Translations under genes and position numbers: made by a program
Source of the DNA: a virus
Lineage: Duplodnaviria > Heunggongvirae > Uroviricota > Caudoviricetes
Direction: 5' to 3' (one strand)
DNA: 39,834 nt
Virus record (IMG/VR): IMGVR_UViG_2713896832_000004
In this document: piece after piece, positions 260 to 25,293 of the stretch
Layout of the letters: each line of letters begins with the position of its first letter
Numbering within the stretch: position 1 is the stretch's first letter
Notes under the pieces: model-generated
Database searches by the model: none
What the model was told of the DNA's origin: nothing
What the model saw: the letters and a program-made list of their open reading frames with translations, nothing else

Positions 260-1444
260 TTAACTTTCCCGGCTGGAGAGTGAATCAATGTAATCAGCGT
301 ACCATTGCATCATTTCACGGCGGCCATCGAGATACAGGGCATGATTATAGGTACCCCTGATGGAATTTTTATCCACATGAGCTAACTGCATTTCAATCCA
401 GGCGGAATTAAAGCCTTGTTCATGCAGAATTGTACTCATGGTGTGTCTGAAACCGTGCCCTGTGAGTCTTCCCTTATATCCAAGTAATTCAATTACTTGG
501 TTAATGCTTTCCTTACTAATTGGTTTGCGGGGATCATTTCTACCGATAAAGACTAGGGGATGATGTTTTGAGATTGGTTCAAGCTGCTTAAATAGCATAA
601 TGACCTGCTCAGAGAGCGGCACAATATGAGGTCGCTTCATCTTCATTACTTCTGCCGGGATCTCCCACAATTTTGTCTCAAAATCGATATCTTCCCAGCG
701 TGCAAAACGCAGTTCTTGTGTTCGTACGCCGGTTAACATAATGATCTGAGTAGCTGTCTTAGTGATTATACTTCCGGTATAACCCGCCAGATCGTTGAGG
801 AAGTGGGGAAGTTCATTAGCAGTAAGAAAGGGAAAATGTACTTTTTTCGGTGTAGCTAAAGCACTGGCAAGATCGGGGGCTGGGTTATAGTCTGCCCGGC
901 CAGTAACAATTGCATAGCGGAACACCTCACCACAGCGCTGGCGGACCTTGCGCATTTTCTCCAGAGCTCCACGTTTTTCCATTTTACGCAGTGCTTCCAG
1001 TAACTCCATTGGTTTGATTTCGGCAATAGGGCGCTTGCCAATGTAGGGAAAAATGTCTTTTTCAAAGGTATCAATGATTTCATCACGATAGCGTAATGAC
1101 CACCGATCAGCTTTTGACTGGTGCCATTCGCGAGCAATAGCCTCGAACGTATTTTTCAGACTCATTTGCTGCGCGATTTTTTCTTCCTTTTTTGCCTCCC
1201 CTGGATCGCCTCCAGCAGCGAGGAGTTTCCTGGCTTCACTGCGTTTCTCGCGAGCATCGGCTAACGTTACATCGGGGTATACGCCAATAGAAAGCATCTT
1301 TTCTTTACCAGCAAAGCGGTACTTCATGCGCCAGTATTTAGAACCATTAGTGTTAATCAGTAGATACATACCGCCGCCATCAGCAAGCTTATAGGGTTTG
1401 TCTTTGGGTTTTGCGGTTTTCACTTTGATATCGGTTAATGCCAT
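260..1444 (-). CDS. Tyrosine recombinase, P4-family integrase of a selC-associated genomic island
   Basis: 394-aa ORF with ATG at 1444..1442 and stop at 262..260. The C-terminal half carries the tyrosine-recombinase signature (…GHGFRHTMST…, …HVDKNSIRGTYNH…). It sits about 300 bp from the 3' end of tRNA-Sec, the typical layout for tRNA-integrating islands. Confidence 0.85.
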   Translation of the reverse strand: MALTDIKVKTAKPKDKPYKLADGGGMYLLINTNGSKYWRMKYRFAGKEKMLSIGVYPDVTLADAREKRSEARKLLAAGGDPGEAKKEEKIAQQMSLKNTFEAIAREWHQSKADRWSLRYRDEIIDTFEKDIFPYIGKRPIAEIKPMELLEALRKMEKRGALEKMRKVRQRCGEVFRYAIVTGRADYNPAPDLASALATPKKVHFPFLTANELPHFLNDLAGYTGSIITKTATQIIMLTGVRTQELRFARWEDIDFETKLWEIPAEVMKMKRPHIVPLSEQVIMLFKQLEPISKHHPLVFIGRNDPRKPISKESINQVIELLGYKGRLTGHGFRHTMSTILHEQGFNSAWIEMQLAHVDKNSIRGTYNHALYLDGRREMMQWYADYIDSLSSRES

Positions 1445-1743: not shown

Positions 1744-1838
1744 TGGCGGAAGATCACAGGAGTCGAACCTGCCCGGGACCGCTGGCGGCCCCAACTGGAT
1801 TTGAAGTCCAGCCGCCTCACCGGAGACGACGATCTTCC
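1744..1838 (-). tRNA. selC: tRNA-Sec (selenocysteine, anticodon UCA)
   Basis: The reverse complement of 1744..1838 is GGAAGATCGTCGTCTCCGGTGAGGCGGCTGGACTTCAAATCCAGTTGGGGCCGCCAGCGGTCCCGGGCAGGTTCGACTCCTGTGATCTTCCGCCA, which is the 95-nt E. coli selC sequence as I remember it, including the encoded CCA. Confidence 0.95.
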
Positions 1839-5892: not shown

Positions 5893-7602
5893 TTACTGCA
5901 CCGGCTCTGTCGATGTAACTTCGCTACTGGAAACGACGCCCGCATTCATGGTTTGAGTCACTTGCTGCTTTTCAGCATTTACGGCGTGGAGTTGCCCGTT
6001 AACGGTAGGTTTCAGCGTGGCATTGGCCTGAATCGCACCGCTGGCAACCAGTTGAATATTGCCATCGCCAGTTATGGGTAACTCAGGCCATCCCCACTGT
6101 TGCAGAATATTCACCGGAACACCGCGTCCGTTCAGACTGATATGGGTCTGACGTTGTGGCGTTTGGGATACGCTGGCGGTGGCTTCCAGAATGCCTTTTT
6201 CAGTAAATGCACTCAGTTCGCTGATATTCACCGTGCTGCTGTTGGCGGTCAGCGCCAGCGACGGGCGACGAACATCAACACGATTGAATGTCGCGGCGGC
6301 GGCATTCAGATTCGCCGAGCCACTCCAGACGCCCCATTTATGATCGGTAACCAGCGTCAGGTTGGCACCGTAACCATCGAGCGCGGTGAGCTGCCACGGG
6401 AAGTCAGGGTCGATATCAATGATCAGATTGCGGCTGGCGCTAAATCTCTTCAGTTGCAGGCTGTTTAACCAACCGGGTGTCGTTTCCATCCACAACTGTT
6501 GCCAGTTTTTCGGCAAGGTATATTCCAGCCCGGCAATTGCCGCATCATCAAGGATCAACGTTTTCCCGTCACGCAGCCAGTTCCCTGACGTTCTGACCAT
6601 ACCCCCTTCCCAGCGGCTGGTGAACTGGCGCAGCGCTACGCCCTGCGGGGAAAATTCCGCGTTTATAATCGGGTCAAATAAATGCAGCGAACCATAAATG
6701 AACTCGCTAGCGTTCATCGACAGTTTGCCTTCCTGTGTCTGCCAGTCATCTTTACTGAAGGTCATGTTGCGCAAGCTGAGATCGAGGTCGGTCACCGCCC
6801 AGTCCGGACCTTGCAAACGAGCATCGATCACTTCCAGGCGACCAATCTGCAACGACGGGACAGAGCGTAATGGCGCAAAGAAGTCGGTTAGCGATTTTTC
6901 GCTTTGTAGACGTATATCCGCCATGCGCAGGTTTTCCACTTGCCAGCTGCCGTCGGCGTTACGCTGCGCGTTTCCGGTTAATGTCCCGCGGGCGATGTCG
7001 GCACCCAGGTTAGTCAGCGTAACGCGATCATTATCAATACTGCCTTCAATCAGTACATTGGTGGCAGGAACATCATTGAGCGAAAGCGATCCGGCACTAA
7101 ACTGAATCTGCGCCTTCGTACCCAGCACTTTACCGGCTTCTGGTGACCACGGAACCACGCCGCCATTTACCCGCTGCGCGCTCAGTTTCCATTCGCTATT
7201 CGGGCTATTAAACGCCATATCACGCAGTTGCAGACGATCGGCTTTGAACGGTAGCGGCGCGGTCTGGTCGGTGAGATTCAGCGTCCCGTTTTCCAGCAGG
7301 ATGGTATCGACATGGCGTGGTTCGGTCAGTTGCCGACTGCTTAGCGCAATGTCGACACTTTTTGCCACCAGGGTCGCGGGCTGACCATCACGACCAAACG
7401 TGACGTTCTCCAGCACGATATGAGATGGCGCGGAAAAACGGTGATCCATCGCCCCGAAGGCCAGATGATAGTCGCTATTCTCGGAAACCCATGCGCTGAT
7501 ATGTTCTGCTCCCCAGCGGGTTTGCAGAAGAAAATAGAGGCCAGCGATCACCACTAACAGAGCGATGAGAATGTAGAGAAGCAGCTTCCCAATAAATTTC
7601 AT
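5893..7602 (-). CDS. yicH: AsmA-family outer-membrane assembly protein YicH
   Basis: Track ORF 5893..7626. I take the start at 7602 (MKFIGKLLLYILIALLV…, N-terminal membrane anchor), giving about 569 aa. Confidence 0.85.
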   Translation of the reverse strand: MKFIGKLLLYILIALLVVIAGLYFLLQTRWGAEHISAWVSENSDYHLAFGAMDHRFSAPSHIVLENVTFGRDGQPATLVAKSVDIALSSRQLTEPRHVDTILLENGTLNLTDQTAPLPFKADRLQLRDMAFNSPNSEWKLSAQRVNGGVVPWSPEAGKVLGTKAQIQFSAGSLSLNDVPATNVLIEGSIDNDRVTLTNLGADIARGTLTGNAQRNADGSWQVENLRMADIRLQSEKSLTDFFAPLRSVPSLQIGRLEVIDARLQGPDWAVTDLDLSLRNMTFSKDDWQTQEGKLSMNASEFIYGSLHLFDPIINAEFSPQGVALRQFTSRWEGGMVRTSGNWLRDGKTLILDDAAIAGLEYTLPKNWQQLWMETTPGWLNSLQLKRFSASRNLIIDIDPDFPWQLTALDGYGANLTLVTDHKWGVWSGSANLNAAAATFNRVDVRRPSLALTANSSTVNISELSAFTEKGILEATASVSQTPQRQTHISLNGRGVPVNILQQWGWPELPITGDGNIQLVASGAIQANATLKPTVNGQLHAVNAEKQQVTQTMNAGVVSSSEVTSTEPVQ

Positions 7603-7690
7603 GGTCTTCCATCCCGTGAAATGCACATAAGGGAGTTATGCACGATTTACGCGCAATCCTCAAGGCGGGAATGGTGAAAGAGGTGAGACT

Positions 7691-7715
7691 GCGGCGGTAA
7701 TTATCTTACCGCCGC
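7691..7715. terminator. GC-rich hairpin just downstream of xanP, no T-tract (possible rho-dependent or REP-like element)
   Basis: Inverted repeat GCGGCGGTAA-ttatc-TTACCGCCGC, 8 nt beyond the xanP stop. Confidence 0.35.
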
Positions 7716-7722
7716 CAGTGAA

Positions 7723-9114
7723 TTACTGTTTTTCTGGTGGGAAAATCAGATTCAGCACGATGGCAGTAATACCGCCCGCGGCGATCCCGGAGGAGAGCAG
7801 GTTTTTCAGCCATTCAGGGGCAAACTGCAAAATCAGCGGCTGCTGAGACACGCCCAGACCAACCGCCAGCGACAGCGCGATAATCAGAATCGCCCGACGG
7901 TTCAGCGGCTCACGAGAAACGATACGCACACCGGAGGCGGCGATGGTGCCAAACATTACAAGCGTTGCGCCGCCCAGAACCGGTTCTGGAATGTGTTGTA
8001 CAAAACCGCTCACTGCCGGGAACAGACCCAGCACGATCAACATCAGCGCGACGACAAAACCGACATAGCGGCTGGCAACACCAGTCAACTGGATCACTCC
8101 GTTGTTTTGCCCGAAGCAGGAGTTCGGGAAGGTGTTAAACACCGCCGAAACAAACGAGTTCAGGCCGTTTGCCAGCACGCCGCCTTTCAGGCGTTTCATG
8201 TACAGCGGACCGGACACTGGCTGTTCGGAAACGTCAGAGGTCGCCGTGATATCGCCAATGGTTTCCAGCGAAGTGATCATAAAGACCAGCATCAGCGGCA
8301 GCAGCAGACTCCATTCAATGCCAAGACCGTAATAGAGCGGCGTTGGCACCATAATCAGTTCTTGCGTCATCGGTTCGTTGCTTTCTGGCAACATGCCCAT
8401 AAACCACGCCAGCGCATATCCGGCCGCCATCGCAATCACCAGTGAGGCCACGCGTAAGTAAGGGTTACGTTGACGGTTAAGCAGGATAATTAAGGCTAAG
8501 ACCACGCCTGCCAGCAGCAGATTTTTCGGTGCGCCGAAGGTGTTATCGCTCATGGCTGCGTAACCGCCGCCAATGGACGTTAACCCAACCTGAATTAGCG
8601 ACAGGCCGATAATCATCACCACAACGCCAGAAACCAGCGGCGTAATAATGCGGCGCGCCAGATGCAGAACGCGGGAGAGCACCATCTCGGTGCAACTTGC
8701 CAGCATCAACGTGCCGAACAAAGCCGCCATCATGGTAGGAACATCAGCACCACCGGTTTTCAGCGCGGTACCGCCCATAATCAGCGGGGCAACAAAGTTG
8801 AAGCTGGTGCCCTGAATAGACAACAGCCCGGAGCCAACCGGACCCCAGGCCTTAATTTGAATAATCGATGCCACACCGGAGGCAAACAGCGACATACTAA
8901 TAATGTGTTGCGTGTCTTGTGCCGGTAAACCCAGCGCCTGGCAGATTAATAGCGCTGGCGTGATCACCGCAACGAACATCGCCAGCAGATGCTGACAGGC
9001 GGCAAACAGGGTTTGAGGAAGCGGCGGACGATCTTCAAGACGGTAAATCAGTTCGCTGTTTTGAGTCTGCGCAACCGGTTGCGCATTTTCTGACTCGAGG
9101 GTGGAAACAGACAT
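7723..9114 (-). CDS. xanP: Xanthine permease (NCS2 family)
   Basis: Track ORF 7723..9123. The start [12 protein letters not shown]… at 9114 gives 463 aa; multi-TM NCS2-like sequence matching XanP (YicE) as remembered. Confidence 0.9.
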
Positions 9115-9393
9115 CGAAAACAATCCCGTGGTAGCAAAGCGGGCATTTTAGCTGACCGAAAGAGAAAAGCAAACGTTTGCCACATCCTCATCTAAATATT
9201 TAAATGAGATAAATGCACTTTTTTATATAACTTTTGGTATTTTTCTGCTTAAAATCCATGCCATTTGTTCATTAACAGCTGAGAATTTGACCCAGGAAAG
9301 CATAACTCGATACCCGTCATAGTTCATGAAGTTGCCACTGCGCGATGAAGTATGACGAGTATGAAAGAGTGATGCGGATACAAAGGAGTAACT

Positions 9394-10599
9394 ATGTTTC
9401 ATCTCGATACTTTAGCAACGCTTGTTGCCGCAACGCTGACGTTGCTGCTCGGGCGTAAGTTGGTCCATTCCGTCTCCTTTTTGAAGAAATACACCATACC
9501 GGAACCTGTTGCGGGTGGTTTGTTGGTGGCGCTGGCGCTACTAGTACTGAAAAAAAGCATGGGCTGGGAAGTCAACTTTGATATGTCCCTGCGCGATCCG
9601 TTAATGCTGGCTTTCTTCGCCACCATTGGCCTGAACGCCAACATTGCCAGTTTGCGTGCCGGTGGGCGTGTGGTTGGCATCTTCTTGATTGTGGTTGTTG
9701 GTCTGTTGGTGATGCAAAATGCCATTGGCATTGGTATGGCTAGCCTGTTAGGGCTTGATCCGCTGATGGGGCTGTTGGCCGGTTCTATTACGCTTTCCGG
9801 CGGTCACGGTACGGGCGCTGCGTGGAGTAAATTGTTCATTGAACGTTATGGCTTCACCAATGCGACGGAAGTGGCGATGGCCTGTGCAACGTTCGGTCTG
9901 GTGCTGGGCGGCTTGATTGGCGGTCCGGTGGCGCGCTATCTGGTGAAACACTCCACCACGCCGAACGGTATTCCGGATGACCAGGAAGTCCCGACGGCGT
10001 TTGAAAAGCCGGATGTGGGCCGCATGATCACCTCGCTGGTGCTGATTGAAACTATCGCGCTGATTGCTATCTGCCTGACGGTGGGGAAAATTGTTGCGCA
10101 ACTTTTGGCTGGCACTGCTTTTGAACTGCCGACCTTCGTCTGTGTCCTGTTTGTTGGCGTGATTCTGAGCAACGGTCTGTCAATGATGGGCTTTTACCGC
10201 GTCTTTGAGCGTGCGGTATCCGTGCTGGGTAACGTAAGCCTGTCGTTGTTCCTGGCGATGGCGCTGATGGGGCTGAAACTGTGGGAGCTGGCTTCGCTGG
10301 CGCTGCCGATGCTGGCGATTCTGGTGGTACAGACCATCTTCATGGCGTTGTATGCCATCTTCGTTACCTGGCGCATGATGGGCAAAAACTACGATGCGGC
10401 AGTGCTGGCTGCGGGTCACTGTGGTTTTGGCCTCGGTGCAACGCCAACGGCAATCGCCAACATGCAGGCGATCACTGAACGCTTTGGCCCGTCGCACATG
10501 GCGTTTTTGGTGGTGCCGATGGTCGGTGCGTTCTTTATCGATATCGTCAATGCGCTGGTGATTAAGCTGTATTTAATGTTGCCGATTTTTGCCGGTTAA
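9394..10599 (+). CDS. gltS: Sodium/glutamate symporter
   Basis: 401-aa polytopic membrane protein beginning MFHLDTLATLVAATLTLLLGRKLV…, divergent from xanP. Confidence 0.9.
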   Translation: MFHLDTLATLVAATLTLLLGRKLVHSVSFLKKYTIPEPVAGGLLVALALLVLKKSMGWEVNFDMSLRDPLMLAFFATIGLNANIASLRAGGRVVGIFLIVVVGLLVMQNAIGIGMASLLGLDPLMGLLAGSITLSGGHGTGAAWSKLFIERYGFTNATEVAMACATFGLVLGGLIGGPVARYLVKHSTTPNGIPDDQEVPTAFEKPDVGRMITSLVLIETIALIAICLTVGKIVAQLLAGTAFELPTFVCVLFVGVILSNGLSMMGFYRVFERAVSVLGNVSLSLFLAMALMGLKLWELASLALPMLAILVVQTIFMALYAIFVTWRMMGKNYDAAVLAAGHCGFGLGATPTAIANMQAITERFGPSHMAFLVVPMVGAFFIDIVNALVIKLYLMLPIFAG

Positions 10600-10601
10600 A
10601 A

Positions 10602-11468
10602 ATGAAAAAGCGTCGGAAGGAACCGGAAACGCTACGTGAACACTGTCGCCATATTTTTGGTGATGAGCCGCCAGTGCTCTGTGTATGGGAAACGGAATTT
10701 GATTACGCAGATGCCGAACTCAAGGCGCTGGCGGCTAAAGAGTGGCAGCAGATCAGCGAATGGGATTTGAGTGCTTACTATGTACTCAATCTCGTTTATA
10801 ACGAACCGATGCAAATAGAGTTGTTTCGCTATCTGTTTCCGCTCTGCCTGGCGCAATGGCATGAAACCATTTTAGCTGGCGGTTATGGTGATCACTTCGA
10901 AGAATCCTTAATGAAGGCATTGTGTCGGCCCTATCTCTGGCAGGAGATGATGAATGCTTCCCAACGCCAGCAGGTACGGCAATTTTTACTGGACACCGCG
11001 TTGCAGCGTATGGATAACGAGCGTGGTTTCAATAACGTTCTTTGCTGGCTGGCGGTGTTCAATACTCTGGGTGGGGCCGCGCCGTTAATTCGTTCTCTCT
11101 GGTCGCGCTGGTGGGCGCTGGATACGCCAGGAAAAGCGGTGTGTGCTATTCAGTATGCCGCGCATCTAATTTATCCCATAGAAGCCAATCCGTTATGGTC
11201 GCAAGAATGGATAGGCTGGGGGCATCCATTAGGCCATAAAGATGGCTGGTCCTCTGATAATCGCGCTTTTCTTCGCCAAATGTTAACACCTGAAATGATT
11301 GTGGCTGGCGTACAGGCAGCGGCTGAAATTCTGCGTGGTGAACCGGAAGGCGCAATGGCGGCGCGAATTGCACAGGATGCGTATGAGGCAATGGATATCC
11401 TCACTATCCAGATTGAAGATTTACTGCGTGACTTGTCTTGTGATGAGTCTGGTCATGCGTTGGAGTAA
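10602..11468 (+). CDS. Hypothetical protein, 288 aa, Trp-rich, soluble-looking, no recognisable domain
   Basis: ATG 3 nt after the gltS stop, and the stop codon overlaps the recG 3' end by 16 bp. Codon usage looks native (CTG, GCG, CCG, CGT rich). No family recognised by eye. Confidence 0.6.
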   Translation: MKKRRKEPETLREHCRHIFGDEPPVLCVWETEFDYADAELKALAAKEWQQISEWDLSAYYVLNLVYNEPMQIELFRYLFPLCLAQWHETILAGGYGDHFEESLMKALCRPYLWQEMMNASQRQQVRQFLLDTALQRMDNERGFNNVLCWLAVFNTLGGAAPLIRSLWSRWWALDTPGKAVCAIQYAAHLIYPIEANPLWSQEWIGWGHPLGHKDGWSSDNRAFLRQMLTPEMIVAGVQAAAEILRGEPEGAMAARIAQDAYEAMDILTIQIEDLLRDLSCDESGHALE

Positions 11469-13534
11469 CGTTCCGTCTCCGGCATCCAGCGTTCTATCAG
11501 GGCTTTTGCTTGTTGTGGGTAACGTTCGTGAATATGTCGCGCCAGGCGCTGAACTTCCGGGATCATCGCCTGATCGCGCAGTAAATCCGCCACTTTAAAT
11601 TCAGCATTACCCGTCTGACGCGTGCCTAACAATTCGCCAGGGCCGCGAATCTCCAGATCTTTTTGCGCAATCACAAAACCGTCGTTACTGTCGCGCAGCA
11701 CTTGCAGGCGAATTTGCGCCGTTTTGGAGAGCGGCGTTTTGTAGAGCAGCACGCAGTGAGAAGCCACCGCGCCACGACCTACGCGCCCGCGCAGCTGGTG
11801 TAACTGCGCTAGACCCAGACGCTCAGGGTTTTCGATAATCATCAGACTGGCGTTAGGCACATCAACGCCGACTTCAATAACGGTAGTGGCAACCAGCAGT
11901 TGTAGCTCACCTTGTTTAAACGACGCCATCACCGCCTGTTTCTCGGCTGGTTTCATCCGCCCGTGTACCAGGCCAACATTCAATTCTGGTAGCGCCAGTT
12001 TCAACTCTTCCCAGGTAGCTTCCGCCGCCTGCGCTTCCAGTAACTCTGACTCTTCAATCAACGTACAAACCCAGTACGCCTGACGACCTTCAGTCATGCA
12101 GGCGTGGCGCACGCGGTCAATGATGTCGGTACGGCGGGTATCAGGAATAGCGACCGTAGTCACTGGCGTGCGGCCTGGCGGCAGCTCATCTATCACCGAG
12201 GTATCGAGATCGGCATACGCCGTCATTGCCAGCGTGCGGGGGATCGGCGTGGCGGTCATGATCAACTGATGCGGATGGAAGCCCTGCTGCTGGCCTTTCT
12301 CCCACAATGCCAGACGCTGATGCACGCCAAAACGATGCTGTTCGTCGATAATCACCAGCGCCAGACCGTTAAACTGCACCTGTTCCTGGAAGATGGCGTG
12401 TGTACCGACAATCATCTGCACCTGACCGCTGGCGATGGCTTCCTGCTGTGCCAGTCGCGCTTTACCTTTCTGCTTACCGGCGAGCCAGCCCACTTCGATA
12501 CCGAGCGGTGCAAACCAGTTGCGGAAGTTATTGGCGTGCTGCTCGGCGAGTAATTCGGTTGGTGCCATCAGGGCCACCTGTTTGCCGTGGGCAATCGCAC
12601 GCAGCGCGGCGAGGGCGGCGACCAGTGTTTTACCGGAACCTACATCGCCCTGCACCAGGCGCATCATTGGAACATCCAGCGCCATATCATGCTCGATCTC
12701 CGCCACTACGCGTGCCTGTGCGCCCGTTGGCTTGAACGGTAAGGCGGCGAGGAGTTTATTTTTCAGCGCGTCATTGGCGCTCAGCGGCTGGGCATGAAAA
12801 CGCTGTGCTCCGGCACGTAAGGCTAACATGCTGAGGTTGTGCGCCAGCAGTTCTTCCAGAATCAGACGACGTTGCGCCGGATGCTGCCCGGTTTCCAGAT
12901 CGCTAAGCTGTAGCGTCGGCGGCGGGCGGTGCAAAGTGCGCAACGCTTCCGGTAGCGTCATCATTCCTTGTGACAGTTCCGGCGGCAGGAGTTCTTCAAT
13001 GGCGCAGGTGTCGAGCAGATCCAGCGCCTGGTCGGTTAATTTACGCAGCGTGGCCTGCTTTACGCCTTCCGTTGTTGGATAAACCGGCGTGAGCGTTTCC
13101 TGTAATTCTGGCGTGCTGAGATCGCCCTGCACGCGGTATTCCGGGTGGATCATCTCCGCACCATATTTACCGCGCTTTGCTTCGCCATAAGCCAGTACAC
13201 GGCGGCCCGTCGCCAGGCTATTTTTCATTGCCGCGCTGAAATTGAAAAAGCGCATGGTGAGGATGCCGGAACCGTCGCTGATCTGGCAGGTCATCATCCG
13301 CCGACCGCCGAAGGAGATATTGCAGTTCAGCACTTCGCCTTCCACCGTGGCATAAACGCCCGGCAGTAGTTCTCCGATGGGGTAGAGATGGGTGCGATCT
13401 TCGTAGCGCAGGGGAAGGTGTAAGAGTAGATCCTGCACGGTATGCAGGTTGATTTTCGCCAGTTTGTTACTAAGTGCTGCGCCAACGCCCGTTAGGGAAC
13501 TGAGTGGGACAGCATCTAACAGGCGACCTTTCAT
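11453..13534 (-). CDS. recG: ATP-dependent DNA helicase RecG
   Basis: Track ORF 11453..13567. The start MKGRLLDAVPLSSLTGVG… at 13534 gives 693 aa. Walker A (GDVGSGKT) and the DEQH box (IIDEQHRFG) are present. Confidence 0.95.
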   Translation of the reverse strand: MKGRLLDAVPLSSLTGVGAALSNKLAKINLHTVQDLLLHLPLRYEDRTHLYPIGELLPGVYATVEGEVLNCNISFGGRRMMTCQISDGSGILTMRFFNFSAAMKNSLATGRRVLAYGEAKRGKYGAEMIHPEYRVQGDLSTPELQETLTPVYPTTEGVKQATLRKLTDQALDLLDTCAIEELLPPELSQGMMTLPEALRTLHRPPPTLQLSDLETGQHPAQRRLILEELLAHNLSMLALRAGAQRFHAQPLSANDALKNKLLAALPFKPTGAQARVVAEIEHDMALDVPMMRLVQGDVGSGKTLVAALAALRAIAHGKQVALMAPTELLAEQHANNFRNWFAPLGIEVGWLAGKQKGKARLAQQEAIASGQVQMIVGTHAIFQEQVQFNGLALVIIDEQHRFGVHQRLALWEKGQQQGFHPHQLIMTATPIPRTLAMTAYADLDTSVIDELPPGRTPVTTVAIPDTRRTDIIDRVRHACMTEGRQAYWVCTLIEESELLEAQAAEATWEELKLALPELNVGLVHGRMKPAEKQAVMASFKQGELQLLVATTVIEVGVDVPNASLMIIENPERLGLAQLHQLRGRVGRGAVASHCVLLYKTPLSKTAQIRLQVLRDSNDGFVIAQKDLEIRGPGELLGTRQTGNAEFKVADLLRDQAMIPEVQRLARHIHERYPQQAKALIERWMPETERYSNA

Positions 13535-13539
13535 GGCAC

Positions 13540-14229
13540 TTACCCTGCAGCCTGCATAGTAGCCCACCAGTCGGCATCAGCTTCGATCTCGCCTTGCTGA
13601 TTGACGTGGGGATAAGGCAGGCCTTTGCGTTTTGCGACTTTCGCCAGCACCGGATAGCCGCCTTCAAACAACAGGCGTTGTTGCTCTGCTTCCGGCAACA
13701 TGCTGTTTTCACGCAGGTACATGCCTGCATTTTGCCGCTGACGCTGGGCTTCGTAAAGAATGAGGGCTGAGGCAACGGAAACATTCAGCGACTGCACCAT
13801 GCCGATCATCGGAATGATGATGTCCTGATCCGCCAGGGCCAATGCTTCCTGCGTGATGCCCGTTTTCTCCTGTCCCATCAAAATGCAGGTCGGGCGAGTG
13901 TAATCAATTTCGCGGAAATCGACAGCGTTATCAGAAAGATGGGTTGCCAGAATCTGCATGCCCTGGCCTTTGAGATGAGCGACGGCATCGCCAATGGTGC
14001 GGTGTGTTTTCACCTGTACCCAGCTGTTACTACCCGCCGCTGCCGAAGCCATGGTGCGCATGCGGCTACCAGGCCAGACGGCGTGAACTTCATGTACGCC
14101 AACGGCATCTGCGGTACGAATAATCGCAGAAACGTTATGAGGTTTGTGGACCTGCTCCATGCAGACGGTCAGATCAGGCTGCCGCCTGGCGAGCATTTCG
14201 CAGATGCGTGCATAACGTGTTGGGTTCAT
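13540..14229 (-). CDS. trmH: tRNA (guanosine18-2'-O)-methyltransferase
   Basis: 229-aa SpoU-family methyltransferase lying between spoT and recG, as in the spoT operon. Confidence 0.9.
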   Translation of the reverse strand: MNPTRYARICEMLARRQPDLTVCMEQVHKPHNVSAIIRTADAVGVHEVHAVWPGSRMRTMASAAAGSNSWVQVKTHRTIGDAVAHLKGQGMQILATHLSDNAVDFREIDYTRPTCILMGQEKTGITQEALALADQDIIIPMIGMVQSLNVSVASALILYEAQRQRQNAGMYLRENSMLPEAEQQRLLFEGGYPVLAKVAKRKGLPYPHVNQQGEIEADADWWATMQAAG

Positions 14230-14235
14230 AAAACA

Positions 14236-16344
14236 TTAATTTCGGTTTCGGGTGACTTTAATCACGTCTGGCATCACGCGGATTTTGCGCATGATATTCG
14301 CCAGATGCACACGGTCACGGGCGGTCAGACGAATAAAGGCGCTGTAGACGCGACCATCTTTCTCTTCCGTATTCAAACTTTGAATATTCGAAGTCGTGGT
14401 GTTAATTGCCGCCGTCAGGTTTGCCAGCGCGCCCTGATGATTGAACATCTCCACCTTGATTTCGGTGATGAACTCCTGCGCCGTCTCTTTATCCCATTCC
14501 ACAGCCATAAACTTCTCTGGCTCTTTCTGGTAGCCACGGATATTACGGCAGGATTCATGGTGGATCACCAGACCTTTACCGGGGCTGACGTGGGCGATAA
14601 TCGGGTCGCCAGGAATAGGGCGGCAGCATTTCGCAAAGGTGATCAGCACGCCATCGGCACCTTTAATGGGCAGATGTCCGTGGCTTTGGGTTGCCGGTGG
14701 AATGGAGGCGTCCCCATGTTGCAGATTTTTCGCGACCACCACGCTCATTGCGTTACCAAGTCCGATTTCTGCCAGCAGATCGTCAAGCGTTGCCAGCTTC
14801 ATGCGATCCAGCTCGCGCTGAATATTTTCCTGCGGGATTTCATTCAGCTTACGGCTACCACCCAAAGCATGGTTGAGCAGACGACGGCCCAGGCTTACAG
14901 AATCATCACGCTTGAGGTTTTTCAGCAACTGACGAATTTTGGCGCGCGCTTTTGAGCTAACGACAAAGTTCAGCCACGCGGCATTCGGGCGAGCGCCCGG
15001 TGCGGTAATGATTTCAACGGTTTGACCGCTGGTAAGCGGCTGCGACAGCGGGTAAGGCTGGCGGTCAACGCGTGCGCCCACGCAGGCATGACCGATATCG
15101 GTATGCACTGCATAAGCGAAGTCGACGGGCGTTGCACCGGCAGGCAGCTCGACAATTCGCCCTTCCGGTGTGAAAACGTAAATCTCATCCGGGAAGAGAT
15201 CGGATTTAACGCTCTCGATAAATTCAAACGAACTACCGGCGCTCTGTTGCAGCTCCAGCAGGCTTTGCATCCAGCGCTGGGCGCGGATTTGCGCGGTGGT
15301 GCTGGTTTCGCCGTGCTCTTTATAAGCCCAGTGCGCGGCAACACCCATCTCCGCCATCTGATCCATATCTTCGGTACGGATCTGGACCTCAACCGGCACA
15401 CCGTGCGGGCCGATCATCGAGGTGTGCAAAGACTGATAGCCGTTCGCTTTTGGAATGGCGATGTAGTCTTTCACGCGACCCGGACGCGGCTTGTACAGGC
15501 TATGCATTTGCCCGAGCACGCGATAACAGGTGTCAGAATCATTGACGATCACGCGGAAAGCGTAGATGTCCATGATTGAGTGAAAACGCTGCTCTTTGAG
15601 CACCATTTTGCAGTAAATCGAATAAAGATGCTTTTCGCGACCACTGACGCGGCACGGTATTCCCGCTTCCTGCAAACGCCCTTCGATTTCAGAGAGGATT
15701 TTTTGGATCATCTCTTTACGGTTGCCGCGCGCGGCTTTCACCACTTCTTTAATTACGCGGTAACGATTGGGATACAGCGCCTCAAAACCCAGCTCTTCGA
15801 GTTCGGTTTTAATGTGGTGGATACCTAAACGGTGCGCCAGCGGGCTATAAATTTCGAGAGTTTCACGGGCGATGCGGCGACGTTTGTCCGGGCGAAGTGA
15901 GCCCAGCGTGCGCATGTTGTGGGTACGGTCGGCAAGTTTGATGAGGATGACGCGGATATCCTGCACCATCGCCATAATCATCTTGCGAAAGTTTTCGGCC
16001 TGCGCCTCTTTCTTATCGCGGAACTTGAGTTTATCAAGTTTCGACACCCCCTCTACCAGCTCGGCGACGCTTTTACCAAAAAGCTGTTCCATATCCTGGT
16101 AGGTGGCGGGAGTATCTTCAATCACGTCATGCAGCAGCGCCGCCATCAGCGTTTCATAGTCGAGTTTCATCTCGGCCAGAATGCAGGCAACCGCTACCGG
16201 GTGCGTGATATAGGGTTCACCGCTTGAACGTGTTTGCCCCTCGTGAGCATCACGTGCAACGAGATACGCCTGCCGCAGACGCTTGATTTGGTCTTCCGGC
16301 AGGTAGGTTTGAATCAGTTGATTCAGGCTTTCAAACAGATACAA
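14236..16344 (-). CDS. spoT: Bifunctional (p)ppGpp synthetase/hydrolase SpoT
   Basis: 702 aa, begins MYLFESLNQLIQTYLPEDQIKRL… from a TTG start codon at 16344..16342, with HD hydrolase and RelA/SpoT synthetase regions. Confidence 0.95.
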   Translation of the reverse strand: MYLFESLNQLIQTYLPEDQIKRLRQAYLVARDAHEGQTRSSGEPYITHPVAVACILAEMKLDYETLMAALLHDVIEDTPATYQDMEQLFGKSVAELVEGVSKLDKLKFRDKKEAQAENFRKMIMAMVQDIRVILIKLADRTHNMRTLGSLRPDKRRRIARETLEIYSPLAHRLGIHHIKTELEELGFEALYPNRYRVIKEVVKAARGNRKEMIQKILSEIEGRLQEAGIPCRVSGREKHLYSIYCKMVLKEQRFHSIMDIYAFRVIVNDSDTCYRVLGQMHSLYKPRPGRVKDYIAIPKANGYQSLHTSMIGPHGVPVEVQIRTEDMDQMAEMGVAAHWAYKEHGETSTTAQIRAQRWMQSLLELQQSAGSSFEFIESVKSDLFPDEIYVFTPEGRIVELPAGATPVDFAYAVHTDIGHACVGARVDRQPYPLSQPLTSGQTVEIITAPGARPNAAWLNFVVSSKARAKIRQLLKNLKRDDSVSLGRRLLNHALGGSRKLNEIPQENIQRELDRMKLATLDDLLAEIGLGNAMSVVVAKNLQHGDASIPPATQSHGHLPIKGADGVLITFAKCCRPIPGDPIIAHVSPGKGLVIHHESCRNIRGYQKEPEKFMAVEWDKETAQEFITEIKVEMFNHQGALANLTAAINTTTSNIQSLNTEEKDGRVYSAFIRLTARDRVHLANIMRKIRVMPDVIKVTRNRN

Positions 16345-16362
16345 GGGCGACCCGCTTTGTGA

Positions 16363-16638
16363 TTAACGACGACCTTCAGCAATAGCGGTAACGGCTTGTA
16401 ATTCAGCGGCTTCCTGCTCTTGCTGTTCCTGGCGTTCGCGAACGTCGAGGATCTGGTTGTTGATCAGACCTTCTTCGATTTCGCGCAGCGCGATTACAGT
16501 GGTTTTATCGTTTTCTTCCGGTACCAGCGGATCCTTTCCGCCTACCTGCATCTGACGAGCGCGACGCGCGGCGACCAGTACCAGGTCAAAACGGTTACCA
16601 ATTTTCTCTACAGCGTCCTGAACAGTTACGCGTGCCAT
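16363..16638 (-). CDS. rpoZ: RNA polymerase omega subunit
   Basis: 91-aa [34 protein letters not shown]… immediately upstream of spoT. Confidence 0.95.
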
Positions 16639-16692
16639 ACTTAAAAAGCTCCACAGGTGAAGAAATGACTGGGCATGATACTGAAATCAGGT

Positions 16693-17440
<748 letters not shown>

Positions 17441-17459
17441 TTTCCGCATTTGCCTGTGA

Positions 17460-19866
<2,407 letters not shown>

Positions 19867-20156
19867 GGTTCTCTCCCTAAAAATCTGTCTGGCAGGGTAG
19901 CGATTTGTGCGTATTGTCACGATTGAGATTTTTTAAGGTGAGAGGAAATTGATAACTTGTAGTTATGTGAAATCGCTATTTTCTGTAGCGTAGATGCATT
20001 CTTCTGACTTCTTGTCTGAGAAAATGCATAAGAAAAAATAGGTTAAAACTGAGGGGGGAAAAGAAAGGTGCAATGTTTAGCCATTGTGTTCACTGCACCT
20101 GGACCTTGGCTTACGCATCGGGTGTCTCAATCAACAAAAAGAGTTTTTCGTTTCTG

Positions 20157-20759
20157 CTATTTCTTCTCTGTAATTTTTACACTGTTTTCCAACTGCTTGA
20201 TGCTGACCTGCGGGGTCGGCAACTCCTCAGGCATGGTTCCGCCAAGTTCCTGAATGGTTTGCCTCACCTTGCTACCCACGTCAAAGTGTGTGGTATTAGC
20301 TTGCTGTGCTGCCTCAACCAATTGTTTGTTATGTTCTTTCAACTCATTTCTCAGAAACAGACGCTTTTCGTCTTCACGAAGTTGCTTAAATGCTTCATCG
20401 TCAGCAAGCTCCTGCCGTCGGGTCTGGATAGCAAAATAAGTCTGCCCTGCCGCAATGACCGGTTTCGCGGGGTCGCCGTTTTGTACTACCAGGTAACAGG
20501 CATAGCGGGAGAGTACGATGTCTTTTAATGCTCTTTTGGCATTTGAGCCAATTTTGACCATATCGAGGATCTCCTCGAAATGGTCATCAATTGTGTGACC
20601 ACTGTTCTCACAGGCCTCTTTGGCGCGCGTTAATACAGGTATAAAGTGACGATACTCTGAATAACCCAGTAGTTTCCCAAGTTGTCTTGCTGACCATTGT
20701 TCTGCTCCGTTTGCATTAATCAGTTTTATCTCTTCAAAAGGTTGATGATGTTCGTTCAT
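20157..20759 (-). CDS. dinD: DNA-damage-inducible protein DinD-like
   Basis: ORF in the dinD position between yicG and yicC, with a LexA box in its promoter. I prefer the start MNEHHQPFEEIKLI… at 20759 (GGAG 8 nt upstream). At about 200 aa it is shorter than the roughly 274 aa I recall for K-12 DinD, which I cannot verify. Confidence 0.65.
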   Translation of the reverse strand: MNEHHQPFEEIKLINANGAEQWSARQLGKLLGYSEYRHFIPVLTRAKEACENSGHTIDDHFEEILDMVKIGSNAKRALKDIVLSRYACYLVVQNGDPAKPVIAAGQTYFAIQTRRQELADDEAFKQLREDEKRLFLRNELKEHNKQLVEAAQQANTTHFDVGSKVRQTIQELGGTMPEELPTPQVSIKQLENSVKITEKK

Positions 20760-20804
20760 TGCCCACTCCATGTGATATCGATTGCAAAGAAAGTAAATCT
20801 GTAA

Positions 20805-20820
20805 CTGTATTTATATACAG
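20805..20820. promoter_or_regulatory. LexA operator (SOS box) upstream of dinD
   Basis: CTGTATTTATATACAG fits the CTGT-N8-ACAG consensus and lies about 45 bp upstream of the dinD start. Confidence 0.65.
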
Positions 20821-20910
20821 TTGTGAGTATCTCACGTTCTCAGTGTGCTGGGCAAAAAAACATCGCAAAATCTGGAGCAGGCACGCAAAACAGAATTGAA
20901 GTTGCGGGGA

Positions 20911-20945
20911 AGAAAAATGCCGCTCTGTTTGAGTGGGCGGCATTT
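20911..20945 (-). terminator. Rho-independent terminator downstream of yicC
   Basis: Inverted repeat AAATGCCGC…GCGGCATTT, followed on the minus strand by a T-rich run. Confidence 0.45.
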
Positions 20946-20979
20946 GTGAAGGCTGAAAAGTAAGAATTAGTGTTACAAG

Positions 20980-21843
20980 TTACTCAATATTCTGAATCTG
21001 CTCGCGCATCTGCTCAATCAACACTTTCAGCTCGATGGCGGAGTTTGTCACTTCGGCATTGATAGATTTCGACGCAAGAGTGTTCGACTCGCGGTTGAAT
21101 TCCTGCATCATAAAGTCCAGACGACGACCAACGGCTTCTTTTTTCTTCAGAATGTTGTAGGTCTCTTTGACATGCGCTTCCAGGCGGTCCAGTTCTTCGG
21201 CAACGTCAATTCGTTGTGCCAGCAGAACCAACTCCTGCTCCAGACGGTTGTTTTCCAACTGAACCTGAGCATCTTCCAGCTTCGCGACCAGACGCTCACG
21301 CTGCCATTGCAGGATTTCCGGCATATGGGCGCGGACTTTGACCACTTCGGCGGTGACGCCTTCCAGACGCTGCTCGATCAATGCTTTCAGCGCCTGACCT
21401 TCGGTTTCGCGCGCGACGATAAAGTCGTCCAGGGTACCATCCAACGCCGCGAGAATTTCAGCGGCAATCGCGTCGAGATCCTGCTCCTGGGCTGCCATCA
21501 CGCCCGGCCAGCGTAGAATATCAACCGGGTTGATTTCCCCTTCGTCACTCTGCATTTTTACCCAGTTCGCGGCAGTTACCAGCTGTTTAGCCAGTTTTTC
21601 GTTGAGGATCAGCTCACCTTGTGCGCTAACATCTGGCTCATAGCGCAGGGTACATTCCACTTTACCGCGCGTCAGGCGAGAACGAATACGCTCGCGAACG
21701 ACAGGTTCAAGGCTACGGAACTGCTCCGGCAGACGAAAGTAAGTTTCCAGATAACGCTGGTTTACCGAGCGCATTTCCCAGGTTGCGCTCCCCCATTCAC
21801 CCTTGATTTCACGCCGGGCGTAGGCGGTCATACTGCGGATCAT
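20980..21843 (-). CDS. yicC: YicC-family protein (stress-induced, YicC-like endoribonuclease family)
   Basis: 287-aa ORF MIRSMTAYARREIKGEWGSATWEMRSVNQRYLE…, divergent from rph. Confidence 0.9.
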   Translation of the reverse strand: MIRSMTAYARREIKGEWGSATWEMRSVNQRYLETYFRLPEQFRSLEPVVRERIRSRLTRGKVECTLRYEPDVSAQGELILNEKLAKQLVTAANWVKMQSDEGEINPVDILRWPGVMAAQEQDLDAIAAEILAALDGTLDDFIVARETEGQALKALIEQRLEGVTAEVVKVRAHMPEILQWQRERLVAKLEDAQVQLENNRLEQELVLLAQRIDVAEELDRLEAHVKETYNILKKKEAVGRRLDFMMQEFNRESNTLASKSINAEVTNSAIELKVLIEQMREQIQNIE

Positions 21844-21969
21844 AGACGTTCCTGTTTATAAAAGGAGAGGTGGGAGGATTATAGCCATCGATGCCTTGTC
21901 AGGATAGGAATAACCGCCGGAAGTCCGTATAATGCGCAGCCACATTTGTTTCAAGCCGGAGATTTCAAT

Positions 21970-22686
21970 ATGCGTCCAGCAGGCCGTAGCAATAATCAGG
22001 TGCGTCCCGTTACCCTGACTCGTAACTATACAAAACATGCAGAAGGCTCGGTGCTGGTCGAATTTGGCGATACCAAAGTGTTGTGTACCGCCTCTATTGA
22101 AGAAGGCGTGCCGCGCTTCCTGAAAGGTCAGGGCCAGGGCTGGATCACCGCAGAGTACGGTATGCTGCCGCGTTCTACCCACACCCGTAACGCTCGTGAA
22201 GCAGCGAAAGGTAAGCAGGGTGGACGCACAATGGAAATCCAGCGTCTGATCGCCCGTGCACTTCGCGCGGCAGTAGATTTGAAAGCGCTGGGTGAGTTCA
22301 CCATTACGCTGGACTGCGACGTGCTTCAGGCTGATGGTGGCACGCGTACCGCTTCGATTACGGGTGCCTGTGTGGCGCTGGCAGATGCGCTACAGAAGCT
22401 GGTGGAAAACGGCAAGCTGAAAACCAATCCAATGAAAGGGATGGTAGCCGCGGTTTCTGTCGGTATTGTAAACGGTGAAGCAATTTGCGATCTGGAATAC
22501 GTTGAAGACTCAGCCGCAGAGACCGACATGAACGTAGTGATGACCGAAGACGGGCGCATTATTGAAGTGCAGGGGACGGCAGAAGGCGAGCCGTTCACCC
22601 ATGAAGAGTTACTCACCTTGTTGGCGCTGGCCCGAGGGGGAATCGAATCCATTGTAGCGACGCAGAAGGCGGCGCTGGCAAACTGA
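21970..22686 (+). CDS. rph: Ribonuclease PH, full length (no rph-1-type truncation)
   Basis: Track ORF 21946..22686. The start [27 protein letters not shown]… at 21970 gives 238 aa, ending …ATQKAALAN. Confidence 0.9.
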
Positions 22687-22692
22687 TTTTTA

Positions 22693-22720
22693 AGGCGACT
22701 GATGAGTCGCCTTTTTTTTT
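22693..22720 (+). terminator. pyrE attenuator / rph terminator hairpin
   Basis: AGGCGACTGATGAGTCGCCT hairpin followed by a T9 run, between the rph stop and the pyrE start. Confidence 0.65.
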
Positions 22721-22752
22721 GTCTGTAGAAAAGTAAGATGAGGAGCGAAGGC

Positions 22753-23394
22753 ATGAAACCATATCAGCGCCAGTTTATTGAATTTGCGCTTAGCAAGCAG
22801 GTGTTAAAGTTTGGCGAGTTTACGTTGAAGTCCGGGCGCAAAAGCCCCTATTTCTTCAACGCCGGGCTGTTTAATACCGGGCGCGATCTGGCACTGTTAG
22901 GCCGTTTTTACGCTGAAGCGTTGGTGGATTCCGGCATTGAGTTCGATCTGCTGTTTGGCCCTGCTTACAAAGGGATCCCGATTGCCACCACAACCGCCGT
23001 GGCGCTGGCGGAGCATCATGACCTGGACCTGCCGTACTGCTTTAACCGCAAAGAAGCAAAAGATCACGGTGAAGGCGGCAATCTGGTTGGTAGCGCGTTA
23101 CAAGGACGCGTAATGCTGGTAGATGATGTGATCACCGCCGGAACGGCGATTCGTGAGTCGATGGAAATTATTCAGGCCAATGGCGCGACGCTTGCTGGCG
23201 TGTTGATTTCGCTCGATCGTCAGGAACGGGGGCGCGGCGAGATTTCGGCGATTCAGGAAGTTGAGCGTGATTACAACTGCAAAGTGATCTCTATCATCAC
23301 CCTGAAAGACCTGATTGCTTACCTGGAAGAGAAGCCGGAAATGGCGGAACATCTGGCGGCGGTTAAGGCCTATCGCGAAGAGTTCGGCGTTTAA
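22753..23394 (+). CDS. pyrE: Orotate phosphoribosyltransferase
   Basis: Track ORF 22738..23394. The start [36 protein letters not shown]… at 22753 gives 213 aa, with a GAGG ribosome-binding site. Confidence 0.95.
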
Positions 23395-23691
23395 AAATAT
23401 GCGCTGTGCAGGGTTTTTGCTGTGCGCAGCGTGATGCGCTTCAAGATATCGTGTTAATCTGCTTTCGCCAGCAGTGGCAATAGCGTTTCCGGCCTTTTGT
23501 GCCGGGAGGGTCGGCGAGTCGCTGACTTAACGCCAGTAGTATGTCCATATACCCAAAGTCGCTTCATTGTACCTGAGTACGCTTCGCGTACGTCGCGCTG
23601 ACGCGCTCAGTACAGTTACGCGCCTTCGGGATGGTTTAATGGTATTGCCGCTGTTGGCGCCTCTTTTGGCCGCCGTGATGTGGAGAGTGGA
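23395..23691 (+). ncRNA. Putative retron msr-msd non-coding region (boundaries approximate)
   Basis: About 300 bp of non-coding sequence directly upstream of a retron-type RT, rich in local dyad symmetries (GCGCA-n6-TGCGC near 23424..23439, GTACGC-ttc-GCGTAC at 23577..23591, GCGCTGACGCGC). Exact a1/a2 and msd boundaries were not resolved by eye. Confidence 0.45.
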
Positions 23692-24651
23692 ATGGATGCT
23701 ACCCGGACAACCCTTCTGGCGCTCGATTTGTTCGGCTCGCCGGGCTGGAGCGCCGATAAAGAAATACAGCGACTGCATGCGCTCAGTAATCATGCCGGAC
23801 GCCATTACCGACGCATTATTCTTTCTAAACGCCACGGTGGTCAGCGGCTGGTGTTAGCCCCTGATTACTTGCTCAAAACCGTACAGCGCAACATTCTTAA
23901 GAACGTCCTTTCACAATTTCCGCTTTCCCCTTTTGCTACAGCCTACCGACCAGGTTGCCCAATCGTCAGCAACGCGCAGCCACACTGCCAACAGCCGCAG
24001 ATCCTGAAACTCGATATCGAAAACTTTTTCGATAGCATTAGCTGGTTACAGGTCTGGCGTGTGTTTCGCCAGGCCCAGTTGCCACGTAATGTGGTAACCA
24101 TGCTGACCTGGATTTGTTGTTATAACGACGCGTTACCGCAGGGGGCACCAACTTCGCCAGCCATTTCCAATCTTGTGATGCGCCGTTTTGATGAACGCAT
24201 AGGGGAATGGTGTCAGGCTCGGGGAATTACCTACACCCGCTACTGCGATGACATGACCTTTTCAGGTCACTTCAATGCCCGCCAGGTTAAAAATAAAGTG
24301 TGCGGATTGTTAGCGGAGCTGGGCCTGAGCCTCAATAAACGCAAAGGCTGCCTGATAGCTGCCTGTAAGCGCCAGCAAGTAACCGGGATTGTTGTTAATC
24401 ACAAGCCACAGCTTGCCCGTGAAGCGCGCCGGGCGCTGCGTCAGGAGGTGCATTTGTGCCAAAAATATGGCGTTATTTCGCATCTTAGTCATCGTGGTGA
24501 ACTTGATCCTTCTGGCGATCTCCACGCACAGGCAACGGCGTATCTTTATGCTTTGCAGGGAAGAATAAACTGGTTATTGCAAATCAACCCTGAGGATGAG
24601 GCCTTTCAACAGGCGAGAGAGAGTGTAAAGCGAATGCTGGTTGCATGGTAA
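23692..24651 (+). CDS. Retron-type reverse transcriptase (RT-only retron, Ec107-like)
   Basis: Track ORF 23680..24651 (GTG). I prefer the ATG at 23692 (GGAG 6 nt upstream), giving 319 aa. RT motifs are present: LDIENFFDSI, QGAPTSPAISNL, YTRYCDDMTF (YxDD box), and the retron-typical VTGIVVN. Confidence 0.85.
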   Translation: MDATRTTLLALDLFGSPGWSADKEIQRLHALSNHAGRHYRRIILSKRHGGQRLVLAPDYLLKTVQRNILKNVLSQFPLSPFATAYRPGCPIVSNAQPHCQQPQILKLDIENFFDSISWLQVWRVFRQAQLPRNVVTMLTWICCYNDALPQGAPTSPAISNLVMRRFDERIGEWCQARGITYTRYCDDMTFSGHFNARQVKNKVCGLLAELGLSLNKRKGCLIAACKRQQVTGIVVNHKPQLAREARRALRQEVHLCQKYGVISHLSHRGELDPSGDLHAQATAYLYALQGRINWLLQINPEDEAFQQARESVKRMLVAW

Positions 24652-24658
24652 GAAAAGC

Positions 24659-24682
24659 GTCAGGCAGACGTTTCTGCCTGAC
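24659..24682. terminator. Palindromic hairpin at the RT/slmA junction (probable slmA terminator)
   Basis: Perfect 10-bp inverted repeat GTCAGGCAGA-cgtt-TCTGCCTGAC, followed on the minus strand by CGCTTTTCTT. Confidence 0.45.
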
Positions 24683-24696
24683 CGTTTAGGGGAGAA

Positions 24697-25293
24697 TTAC
24701 TGCAACTGCGCGGCAATTAGCGGCCAGCGGGCGTCAAAATCATCCGTCGGGCGGTATTTAAACTCGCTGCGGACAAAACGTGACAGCATACCTTCACAGA
24801 AGGCCAGGATCTGGCTTGCCAGCAGGGTTTCATCGGTGGTGTAACCTTCACCCTCACGCATTCTCTTTTCACGCAATACCTGACGCAGCTGCGCTTCAAT
24901 ACGCTCGAACAGCTGGTTGATGCGCCCTTGCAGGCGATCCTGTTCAAACATTAGCGCATGCCCGGTAAGGATGCGGGTCAGGCCAGGATTACGCTCACCA
25001 AAACCGAGAAGCAGCAACACAATCAGACGCAGGCGCGCTGTGGTGTCTTTCTCATCTTTCAGAATCAGGTTGATGCGAGTAATCAGGCTATCTTCGATAA
25101 ACTCAATCAGGCTATCGAACATGCGGGTCTTACTGGGGAAGTGGCGATATAGTGCCGCTTCGGAAACGCCGACAGAGGCAGCCAGTTTTGCCGTCGTGAT
25201 ACGTTGGCTTCCATCGCTGGATTCCAGCATCAGCGCCAGAGACTGAAGTATTTCCTCGCGACGGTTCCTTTTCGCAGTTTGTTTTTCTGCCAT
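24697..25293 (-). CDS. slmA: Nucleoid occlusion factor SlmA (TetR family)
   Basis: Track ORF 24697..25335. The start [24 protein letters not shown]… at 25293 gives 198 aa. Confidence 0.9.

Follow-up and report, generated by a model that had tools for sequence, protein, structure and literature searches.

Substitution patterns among its homologues demonstrate that the 288-codon open reading frame (ORF) between gltS and recG is a genuine protein-coding gene under purifying selection. It lies in a viral record of 39,834 nucleotides, and "the window" denotes that whole stretch of DNA. Overall, we read it as a real accessory gene of an uncharacterised family, probably coupled to gltS and perhaps encoding a non-enzymatic, solenoid-type binding protein, and we give this reading a probability of a little over one half (about 0.55).

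The gene is already known by annotation as an ordinary, dispensable accessory "hypothetical protein". It is ECs_4528 in O157:H7 Sakai (NP_312555.2) and, in EC4115, BL21 and other strains, the RefSeq "hypothetical protein" WP_000747329 or WP_000747337; these entries represent one gene, 99–100% identical within E. coli and likewise placed between gltS and recG. The RefSeq locus tags of the gene in EC4115 and BL21 break the numerical series of the neighbouring genes, which suggests that a later round of annotation introduced it. We took STM3745 of strain LT2 as the Salmonella orthologue because length, description and organism match; it has been described as an 852-bp gene for a "cytoplasmic protein" of unknown function (PMC3853940). 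Searches of the literature with accessions, locus tags and gene pairs returned that incidental mention and one other, a 2026 typing paper that refers to "a variable intervening gene" between recG and gltS as "hotspot C" (PMC13185298), and no functional or expression study was found.

Coding evidence and boundaries

The first-pass annotation had described an intact ORF, and both the ORF list and the sequence bear this out (Table 1). Codon usage in frame scored -1.08, compared with -1.27 to -1.49 in the other frames and on the antisense strand. This score is close to those of the neighbouring genes, in keeping with the native codon usage originally noted, yet GC3 is 0.50 versus 0.60–0.65 in the neighbours, and usage therefore appears only roughly native. 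Between genera, dN/dS was 0.15–0.19 for pairs with measurable dS, and pN/pS between the two E. coli allele classes was approximately 0.25–0.3. Because these ratios are far from ~1, a spurious or overprinted ORF was rejected. All eight full E. coli alleles examined were intact, and the few differences within the main E. coli allele class were mostly non-synonymous.

Table 1. Features of the gltS-recG interval, with positions in the window and, for protein motifs, residue numbers in the ORF product.
Feature	Position	Strand	Evidence or conservation
288-aa ORF, ECs4528/STM3745 family	10602..11468	+	ATG start, intact; ORF list and sequence
gltS, sodium/glutamate symporter, upstream cistron	9394..10599	+	ORF list; RefSeq annotation of identical or near-identical loci
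gltS stop/ORF start junction, TAA-AA-ATG	10597..10604	+	sequence; without Shine-Dalgarno
recG, convergent with the ORF	11453..13534	-	ORF list, sequence; annotation of related loci
ORF C-terminal tail SGHALE and stop	11448..11468	+	mostly antisense to the last recG codons
VWETEFD motif, residues 28-34	10683..10703	+	two family alignments
Q-x-x-LFRYLFPLCLAQW core motif, residues 71-86	10812..10859	+	family alignments
W-x-x-WW...PGKA motif, residues 167-179	11100..11138	+	W170 95%, G177 94%
W...N motif, residues 216-220	11247..11261	+	W216 94%, N220 98%

Homologues aligned with the ORF protein end to end, with identities of 69–71% for Salmonella orthologues in the same position, 64–66% for Superficieibacter and 37% for a Zoogloeaceae MAG, and family members were full-length homologues with E-values from 1e-131 to 1e-54 over 94–100% of the length. 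A profile search of 1.84 billion representatives gave 445 proteins at E up to 1e-3; among the matches listed, nearly all were about 300 aa long with a single matched stretch over most of the protein. Every protein from a second profile search carried the source name "hypothetical protein". Members were located in genomes of Cupriavidus, Planctomycetes, Acidobacteria (Bryobacterales), Armatimonadota and cyanobacteria and, by these homologies, the ECs4528/STM3745 family is conserved across phyla. We also observed that 90%-identity protein clusters containing the ORF protein hold GltS sequences, one of them with GltS as its representative. Such mixed clusters would explain why the window's own protein is missing as a separate match in the homology searches; they might stem from gene calls that fuse gltS with the ORF or read through from one into the other.

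The upstream boundary is tight. The start codon had been placed 3 nt after the gltS stop, and the TAA indeed ends at 10599, with two spacer bases before the ATG at 10602; the identity of the upstream cistron is supported by a Glt_symporter Pfam match on the Salmonella gltS orthologue. Similar junctions were found wherever gltS lies upstream: TAA-AA-ATG in E. coli, TAA-G-ATG in Salmonella, and a TAATG overlap in a MAG whose protein is 48% identical, whereas a GGGAGG Shine-Dalgarno sequence precedes the gene in orthologues without upstream gltS. The two reading frames are 2, 1 or -1 nt apart, with no Shine-Dalgarno sequence, and from this we infer that in E. coli and Salmonella the ORF would be the distal cistron of a gltS-ORF transcript, expressed by translational coupling.

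At its other end the ORF overlaps recG by the 16 bp originally reported (11453–11468), the recG stop codon TGA occupying 11453–11455 on the minus strand. The ORF tail covers the last five recG codons (Y-S-N-A-stop), which read TAC TCC AAC GCA TGA, with four synonymous differences from the TAC TCG AAT GCG TAA of ORF-less alleles. The SGHALE tail has low confidence in the structure model (pLDDT 60 for the last block) and is missing from the Salmonella, Klebsiella and Superficieibacter orthologues; it is probably an incidental, non-functional extension with a sequence dictated by the recG Y-S-N-A codons. The overlap itself is not conserved, since the Salmonella gene and that of the MAG at 48% identity stop 2 and 1 nt short of the recG stop, and gaps of 2 to 358 nt separate the two genes in Salmonella, Klebsiella sp. 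and S. electus.

It had also been pointed out that this arrangement leaves no room for terminators between the two convergent units, and this held up: neither a pattern scan nor folding (z = +0.9 and +0.2) revealed a terminator-like structure after either stop in the ORF allele. In the same place, an ORF-less allele has a GC-rich terminator hairpin followed by U5 (-19.9 kcal/mol, z = -3.9). Since the convergent units leave no space for an intrinsic terminator, transcription of gltS-ORF and of recG presumably ends inside the coding region of the opposite unit, by the action of Rho. A search against Rfam of window positions 9000–25000 found no RNA. The locus offers a natural example of convergent units without terminator room beside alleles with a canonical hairpin, and comparing these alleles could reveal differences in the way the 3' ends of recG and gltS form.

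The predicted protein and its conserved positions

The product contains 13 Trp residues (4.5%), one more than the 12 first counted. As had been anticipated, it has no predicted transmembrane segment (maximum 19-residue Kyte-Doolittle mean 1.46), and structure prediction, a check proposed in the first-pass annotation, gave a soluble, all-helical model that may be of the alpha-solenoid type. Nor was the earlier failure to recognise a motif or a known function overturned by database searches. Scans of the ORF protein against Pfam (E up to 1), NCBIfam, PADLOC and PHROGs assigned no family, including zero families among the PADLOC-DB 2.0 profiles at E up to 1; the sole library match, an NCBIfam line at E = 0.13, was dismissed as chance. 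A Pfam scan of 85 diverse members (E up to 0.1) found no consistent family and no Imm domain, queries of PDB sequences, run both with the ORF protein by itself and with a profile of the 85 members, returned only chance matches (E at least 0.5), and Foldseek with the model of the ORF protein found nothing at E below 0.2. The family combines a confidently predicted fold with the lack of a Pfam model and of any solved structural relative, which makes it an attractive subject for structural and functional genomics.

Four motifs, VWE.EFD, LFRYLFP.CL..W, W..WW...PG.A and W...N, are shared by the family, invariant in the first of two family alignments and largely kept in the second, deep one; the homologues described above, down to the Zoogloeaceae MAG, have VWE.EFD, LFRYLFP.CL..W, W..WW and PG.A unchanged. 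Within the first motif, V28, W29, E30, F33 and D34 are invariant in enterics, and F33 and D34 are retained in approximately 88% of the deep family. P80 is the sole invariant position among the 85 diverse members; besides M1, conservation of at least 90% is seen at Y60, Q71, W86, W170, G177, W216 and N220, with Q71 and W86 reaching at least 94%, while D34 and D63 stand at 84–88%. The conserved positions do not form a typical catalytic signature; they would fit a structural core and possibly an aromatic- or amide-binding surface.

Distribution and evolutionary history

A match over at least 80% of the ORF was found in 1912 of 5426 complete E. coli genomes, in each case on the chromosome and never on a plasmid, and 1873 of the 1918 matching genomes were at least 99% identical to the window ORF. 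Among the carriers listed are O157:H7, O111:H8, strain B and BL21. Its suspected absence from K-12 is real, as MG1655 has no gene between recG and gltS but only a 168-bp gap. Of the two options offered at first, strain-variable or overlooked, the former stands and the latter does not, since the gene is annotated in Sakai and by RefSeq. One carrier, NZ_CP026085.1 (L001), is a 4.83-Mb record labelled "DH5alpha", whereas K-12 MG1655 (4.64 Mb) lacks the ORF; the strain label is probably wrong. Compared with this record, the window differs at 3 of 867 bp in the ORF and at 17 positions in an adjacent 200 bp of recG (window 11600–11800), a step in divergence that may mark a recombination breakpoint immediately past the ORF.

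Approximately 65% of complete E. coli genomes, K-12 included, are ORF-less. Two types of spacer were found in such genomes. One (L003) is 33 bp long and consists of the hairpin mentioned above, with an 11-bp GC stem followed by UUUUU; the other, the K-12 type (L002/L004), is about 165–168 bp long, with two hairpin-forming segments flanking a REP-like sequence. The K-12-type spacer can be described as the 33-bp spacer plus an insert of approximately 135 bp; the insert includes a REP-like palindrome and has the direct repeat GGCGGT on either side, and this shared structure indicates that the two alleles are related by one insertion or deletion at GGCGGT. We considered whether the spacers are remnants of a deleted ORF, but the resemblance of ATGAAGCGGCGG to the ORF start was not significant (shuffle fraction 0.04–0.24). 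Because neither type of spacer significantly resembles the ORF, the sequences are compatible with gain as well as with loss in E. coli.

Alignment of the gltS-recG interval across Enterobacteriaceae, as the first-pass annotation had proposed, revealed a reading frame that is present and clearly conserved, with some copies frameshifted or truncated. In every Enterobacteriaceae locus examined the gene converges on the 3' end of recG, while the gene upstream differs. This position was found in Salmonella, Klebsiella sp., Pseudocitrobacter, Superficieibacter, Intestinirhabdus and "Enterobacter" sp. kpr-6, and its sharing by several enterobacterial genera supports the initial impression of an old resident. 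The upstream gene is gltS in E. coli, Salmonella and the MAG at 48% identity, and xanP in Intestinirhabdus and "Enterobacter" sp. kpr-6; in Klebsiella sp. MISC125 and Superficieibacter it is a glpX-like gene (named from translated sequence), followed by an fpr-like gene, and the Pseudocitrobacter locus has the same block. In Leminorella, a member of the Enterobacterales outside Enterobacteriaceae, the gene lies between gapA and yeaD (both named from translated sequence), and non-enteric homologues are not near recG.

The ORF has diverged from its Salmonella orthologue with a dN of 0.22, compared with 0.03–0.04 for xanP, gltS and recG. Thus, its amino-acid sequence diverges roughly 5–10 times faster than those of its neighbours, still under purifying selection. 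Synonymous sites are saturated, with pS of 0.74–0.84 versus 0.50–0.63 in the neighbours (0.74 versus 0.55–0.59 in the comparison with Salmonella). Fast evolution may reflect either weak constraint with weak expression, or alleles that are older than the flanks or exchanged independently of them. Because pS of the ORF exceeds that of its neighbours, ancient residency and repeated allelic replacement through conserved flanks look alike in these data.

Among E. coli-type sequences inactivated copies are frequent: frameshifts and truncations have arisen independently, one in-frame deletion removes 31 aa, and the E. coli H101 record has a split copy. In S. Typhimurium, DT99, DT9 and D23580 have in common an early stop in STM3745 (PMC3853940). 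In addition, the family member of a Planctomycetales MAG (L021) was observed to be split (5959–6480 and 7677–8111) by an intervening gene that, judged by eye from its translation, resembles an IS630-type transposase. The simplest reading is that the gene would be an old, dispensable resident that has been lost repeatedly. It was not found on phage records, viral contigs or genuine plasmids; three "plasmid" matches proved to be chromosomal sequence, in records that carry recG or are 1.0–4.8 Mb long. No recurrent partner emerged from all-against-all clustering of 354 neighbouring ORFs at approximately 45 loci or from a Pfam scan of about 50 neighbours from distant loci. The sole recurrent neighbour sets were those of near-identical Cupriavidus-type loci and the enterobacterial recG/trmH/spoT block.

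Elsewhere in the window, a 1.3-kb insertion relative to O157 Sakai lies between pyrE and slmA (23395–24696). Its ORF (23680–24651, plus strand) encodes a reverse transcriptase of 323 aa, with a match to Pfam RVT_1 (E = 3.6e-21) and the annotation "reverse transcriptase family protein", and the insertion is present in 382 of 5426 complete E. coli genomes. The size and solitary position of the enzyme suggest a retron, and the approximately 285 nt upstream could encode the msr/msd RNA; no Rfam family reached its gathering threshold in the insertion. At the left edge, a P4-type tyrosine integrase (260–1441, minus strand; Arm-DNA-bind_3, Phage_int_M and Phage_integrase) adjoins tRNA-Sec (selC; 1744–1838, minus strand), and a genomic island inserted at selC therefore starts there; the integrase region is approximately 89% identical to that of the Sakai LEE (SpLE4). 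The dinD locus (approximately 20157–20759, minus strand) aligns to Sakai dinD only over nucleotides 1–33, 247–462 and 675–825, and its longest ORF is 204 aa versus 274 aa for the 825-nt Sakai gene, indicating an internally deleted or diverged dinD allele in the window strain.

Possible functions

Function is unassigned in the existing annotation of the gene. Because the family shows no catalytic signature and its fold resembles binding scaffolds in a generic way, we tentatively propose, as a possibility well short of even odds, that the product is a cytoplasmic, non-enzymatic alpha-solenoid that acts alone and binds a protein or a small ligand. Binding might involve a surface rich in Trp, Tyr, Asn and Gln, and the trait might be conditionally useful and accessory rather than housekeeping. 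The same residues admit a different interpretation, in which the product would be a novel all-alpha enzyme, or a binder of small molecules such as a sugar, a nucleobase or an aromatic compound, with catalytic Asp residues. The many conserved positions (W86, W149, W167, W170, W171, W216, Y60, Y185, Y191, N196, N220, Q71, D34 and D63) would by analogy resemble carbohydrate- or base-binding pockets, and D34 and D63 could be catalytic; we consider such an enzyme or ligand binder improbable. A protein of conflict systems, either an orphan immunity protein that binds an interbacterial toxin or a single-gene defence or anti-defence factor, is also unlikely, if less so. It would account for fast evolution under purifying selection, for patchy presence and absence with recurrent loss, and for a predicted fold that is binder-like. 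A minority of the distant contexts is also variable or conflict-like: Cupriavidus neighbours include McrBC with small DUF6869 and DUF6714 genes, at single loci the gene lies directly downstream of a TIR-domain protein (L045) or beside RlaP and R2K ATP-grasp genes (L041), and others have ORF6N genes, transposase genes or IS elements nearby (among them L036, L021 and L029). However, neither PADLOC nor PHROG profiles matched, no Imm, SUKH or other Pfam family was found in the 85 members, and phages, viral contigs and genuine plasmids lack the gene. In enterics it is flanked by housekeeping genes (gltS, xanP or glpX; recG), and genes for toxins or mobility are absent from the vicinity; most distant contexts are likewise housekeeping (SecA, efflux, KAS, LysR), and a TIR protein is directly upstream in 1 of approximately 20 distant loci. 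A more specific version seems improbable to us: the whole family would consist of alpha-solenoid conflict proteins that act alone, as an orphan immunity factor or a single-gene defence or tolerance factor, and the gene, established beside the 3' end of recG in an enterobacterial ancestor, would be polymorphic because the antagonist is only sometimes present. If a conflict role were true, presence in BL21, O157:H7 and Salmonella versus absence in K-12 would explain a strain-specific phenotype missed by K-12-centred genetics.

Two further proposals derive from the neighbours. The product could assist or regulate the GltS glutamate symporter as its partner, with translational coupling keeping the two proteins in fixed proportion, and retention of the tight junction in E. 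coli, Salmonella and the MAG at 48% identity is what such a partnership predicts. We nevertheless hold it to be highly improbable: six other enterobacterial genomes keep the recG position with no gltS upstream and with a Shine-Dalgarno sequence of the gene's own, distant homologues never adjoin a Glt_symporter gene, and the ORF-less majority of E. coli genomes has an intact annotated gltS. A tie to recG or to the spoT operon, as a DNA-repair accessory or through convergent transcription that modulates formation of the recG 3' end, would make sense of the constant adjacency to recG despite upstream rearrangements and of the antisense overlap in the window. The genes are convergent and so not co-transcribed, the overlap varies as described, the Leminorella and non-enteric homologues lie away from recG, Rfam found no RNA in the region, and no DNA-repair Pfam family matched, HEAT-like DNA glycosylases included; we give such a tie very little credence. 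Finally, many independent inactivating mutations and deletions, and the preponderance of non-synonymous changes among the few within the main E. coli allele class, are what one would expect of a non-functional relic that merely stays open. The dN/dS and pN/pS values, the intact state of all eight full alleles, the near-identity of most carriers and conservation of the family across phyla speak against this, and on the selection data a relic appears largely refuted and scarcely credible.

Whatever its role, the gene lies in the uncharacterised part of the genomes of important strains (BL21/B, O157:H7 and other STEC, and many Salmonella), and it is invisible to K-12 work because K-12 lacks it.

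Compared with known proteins, the model may in a generic way resemble alpha-solenoid scaffolds of the HEAT/ARM type, such as the Rtt103 CTD-interacting domain (2km4), HEAT subunits of condensin and cohesin, and importins. Sequence identity to these is 4–14%, Z never reaches 8, and Pfam repeats of the class (HEAT, HEAT_2, Arm and similar) are absent from the ORF protein and from the 85 family members; the likeness would be one of fold class rather than demonstrated homology. Variable hypothetical genes between core genes are common. As with the "hotspot C" gene between recG and gltS (PMC13185298) and other strain-variable insertions, the ORF is present or absent at a fixed site between core genes. 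Unlike other such insertions, its locus has no mobility genes, repeats or att-like sites and is syntenic across genera, which suggests an old gene in the course of loss rather than the gain of an island.
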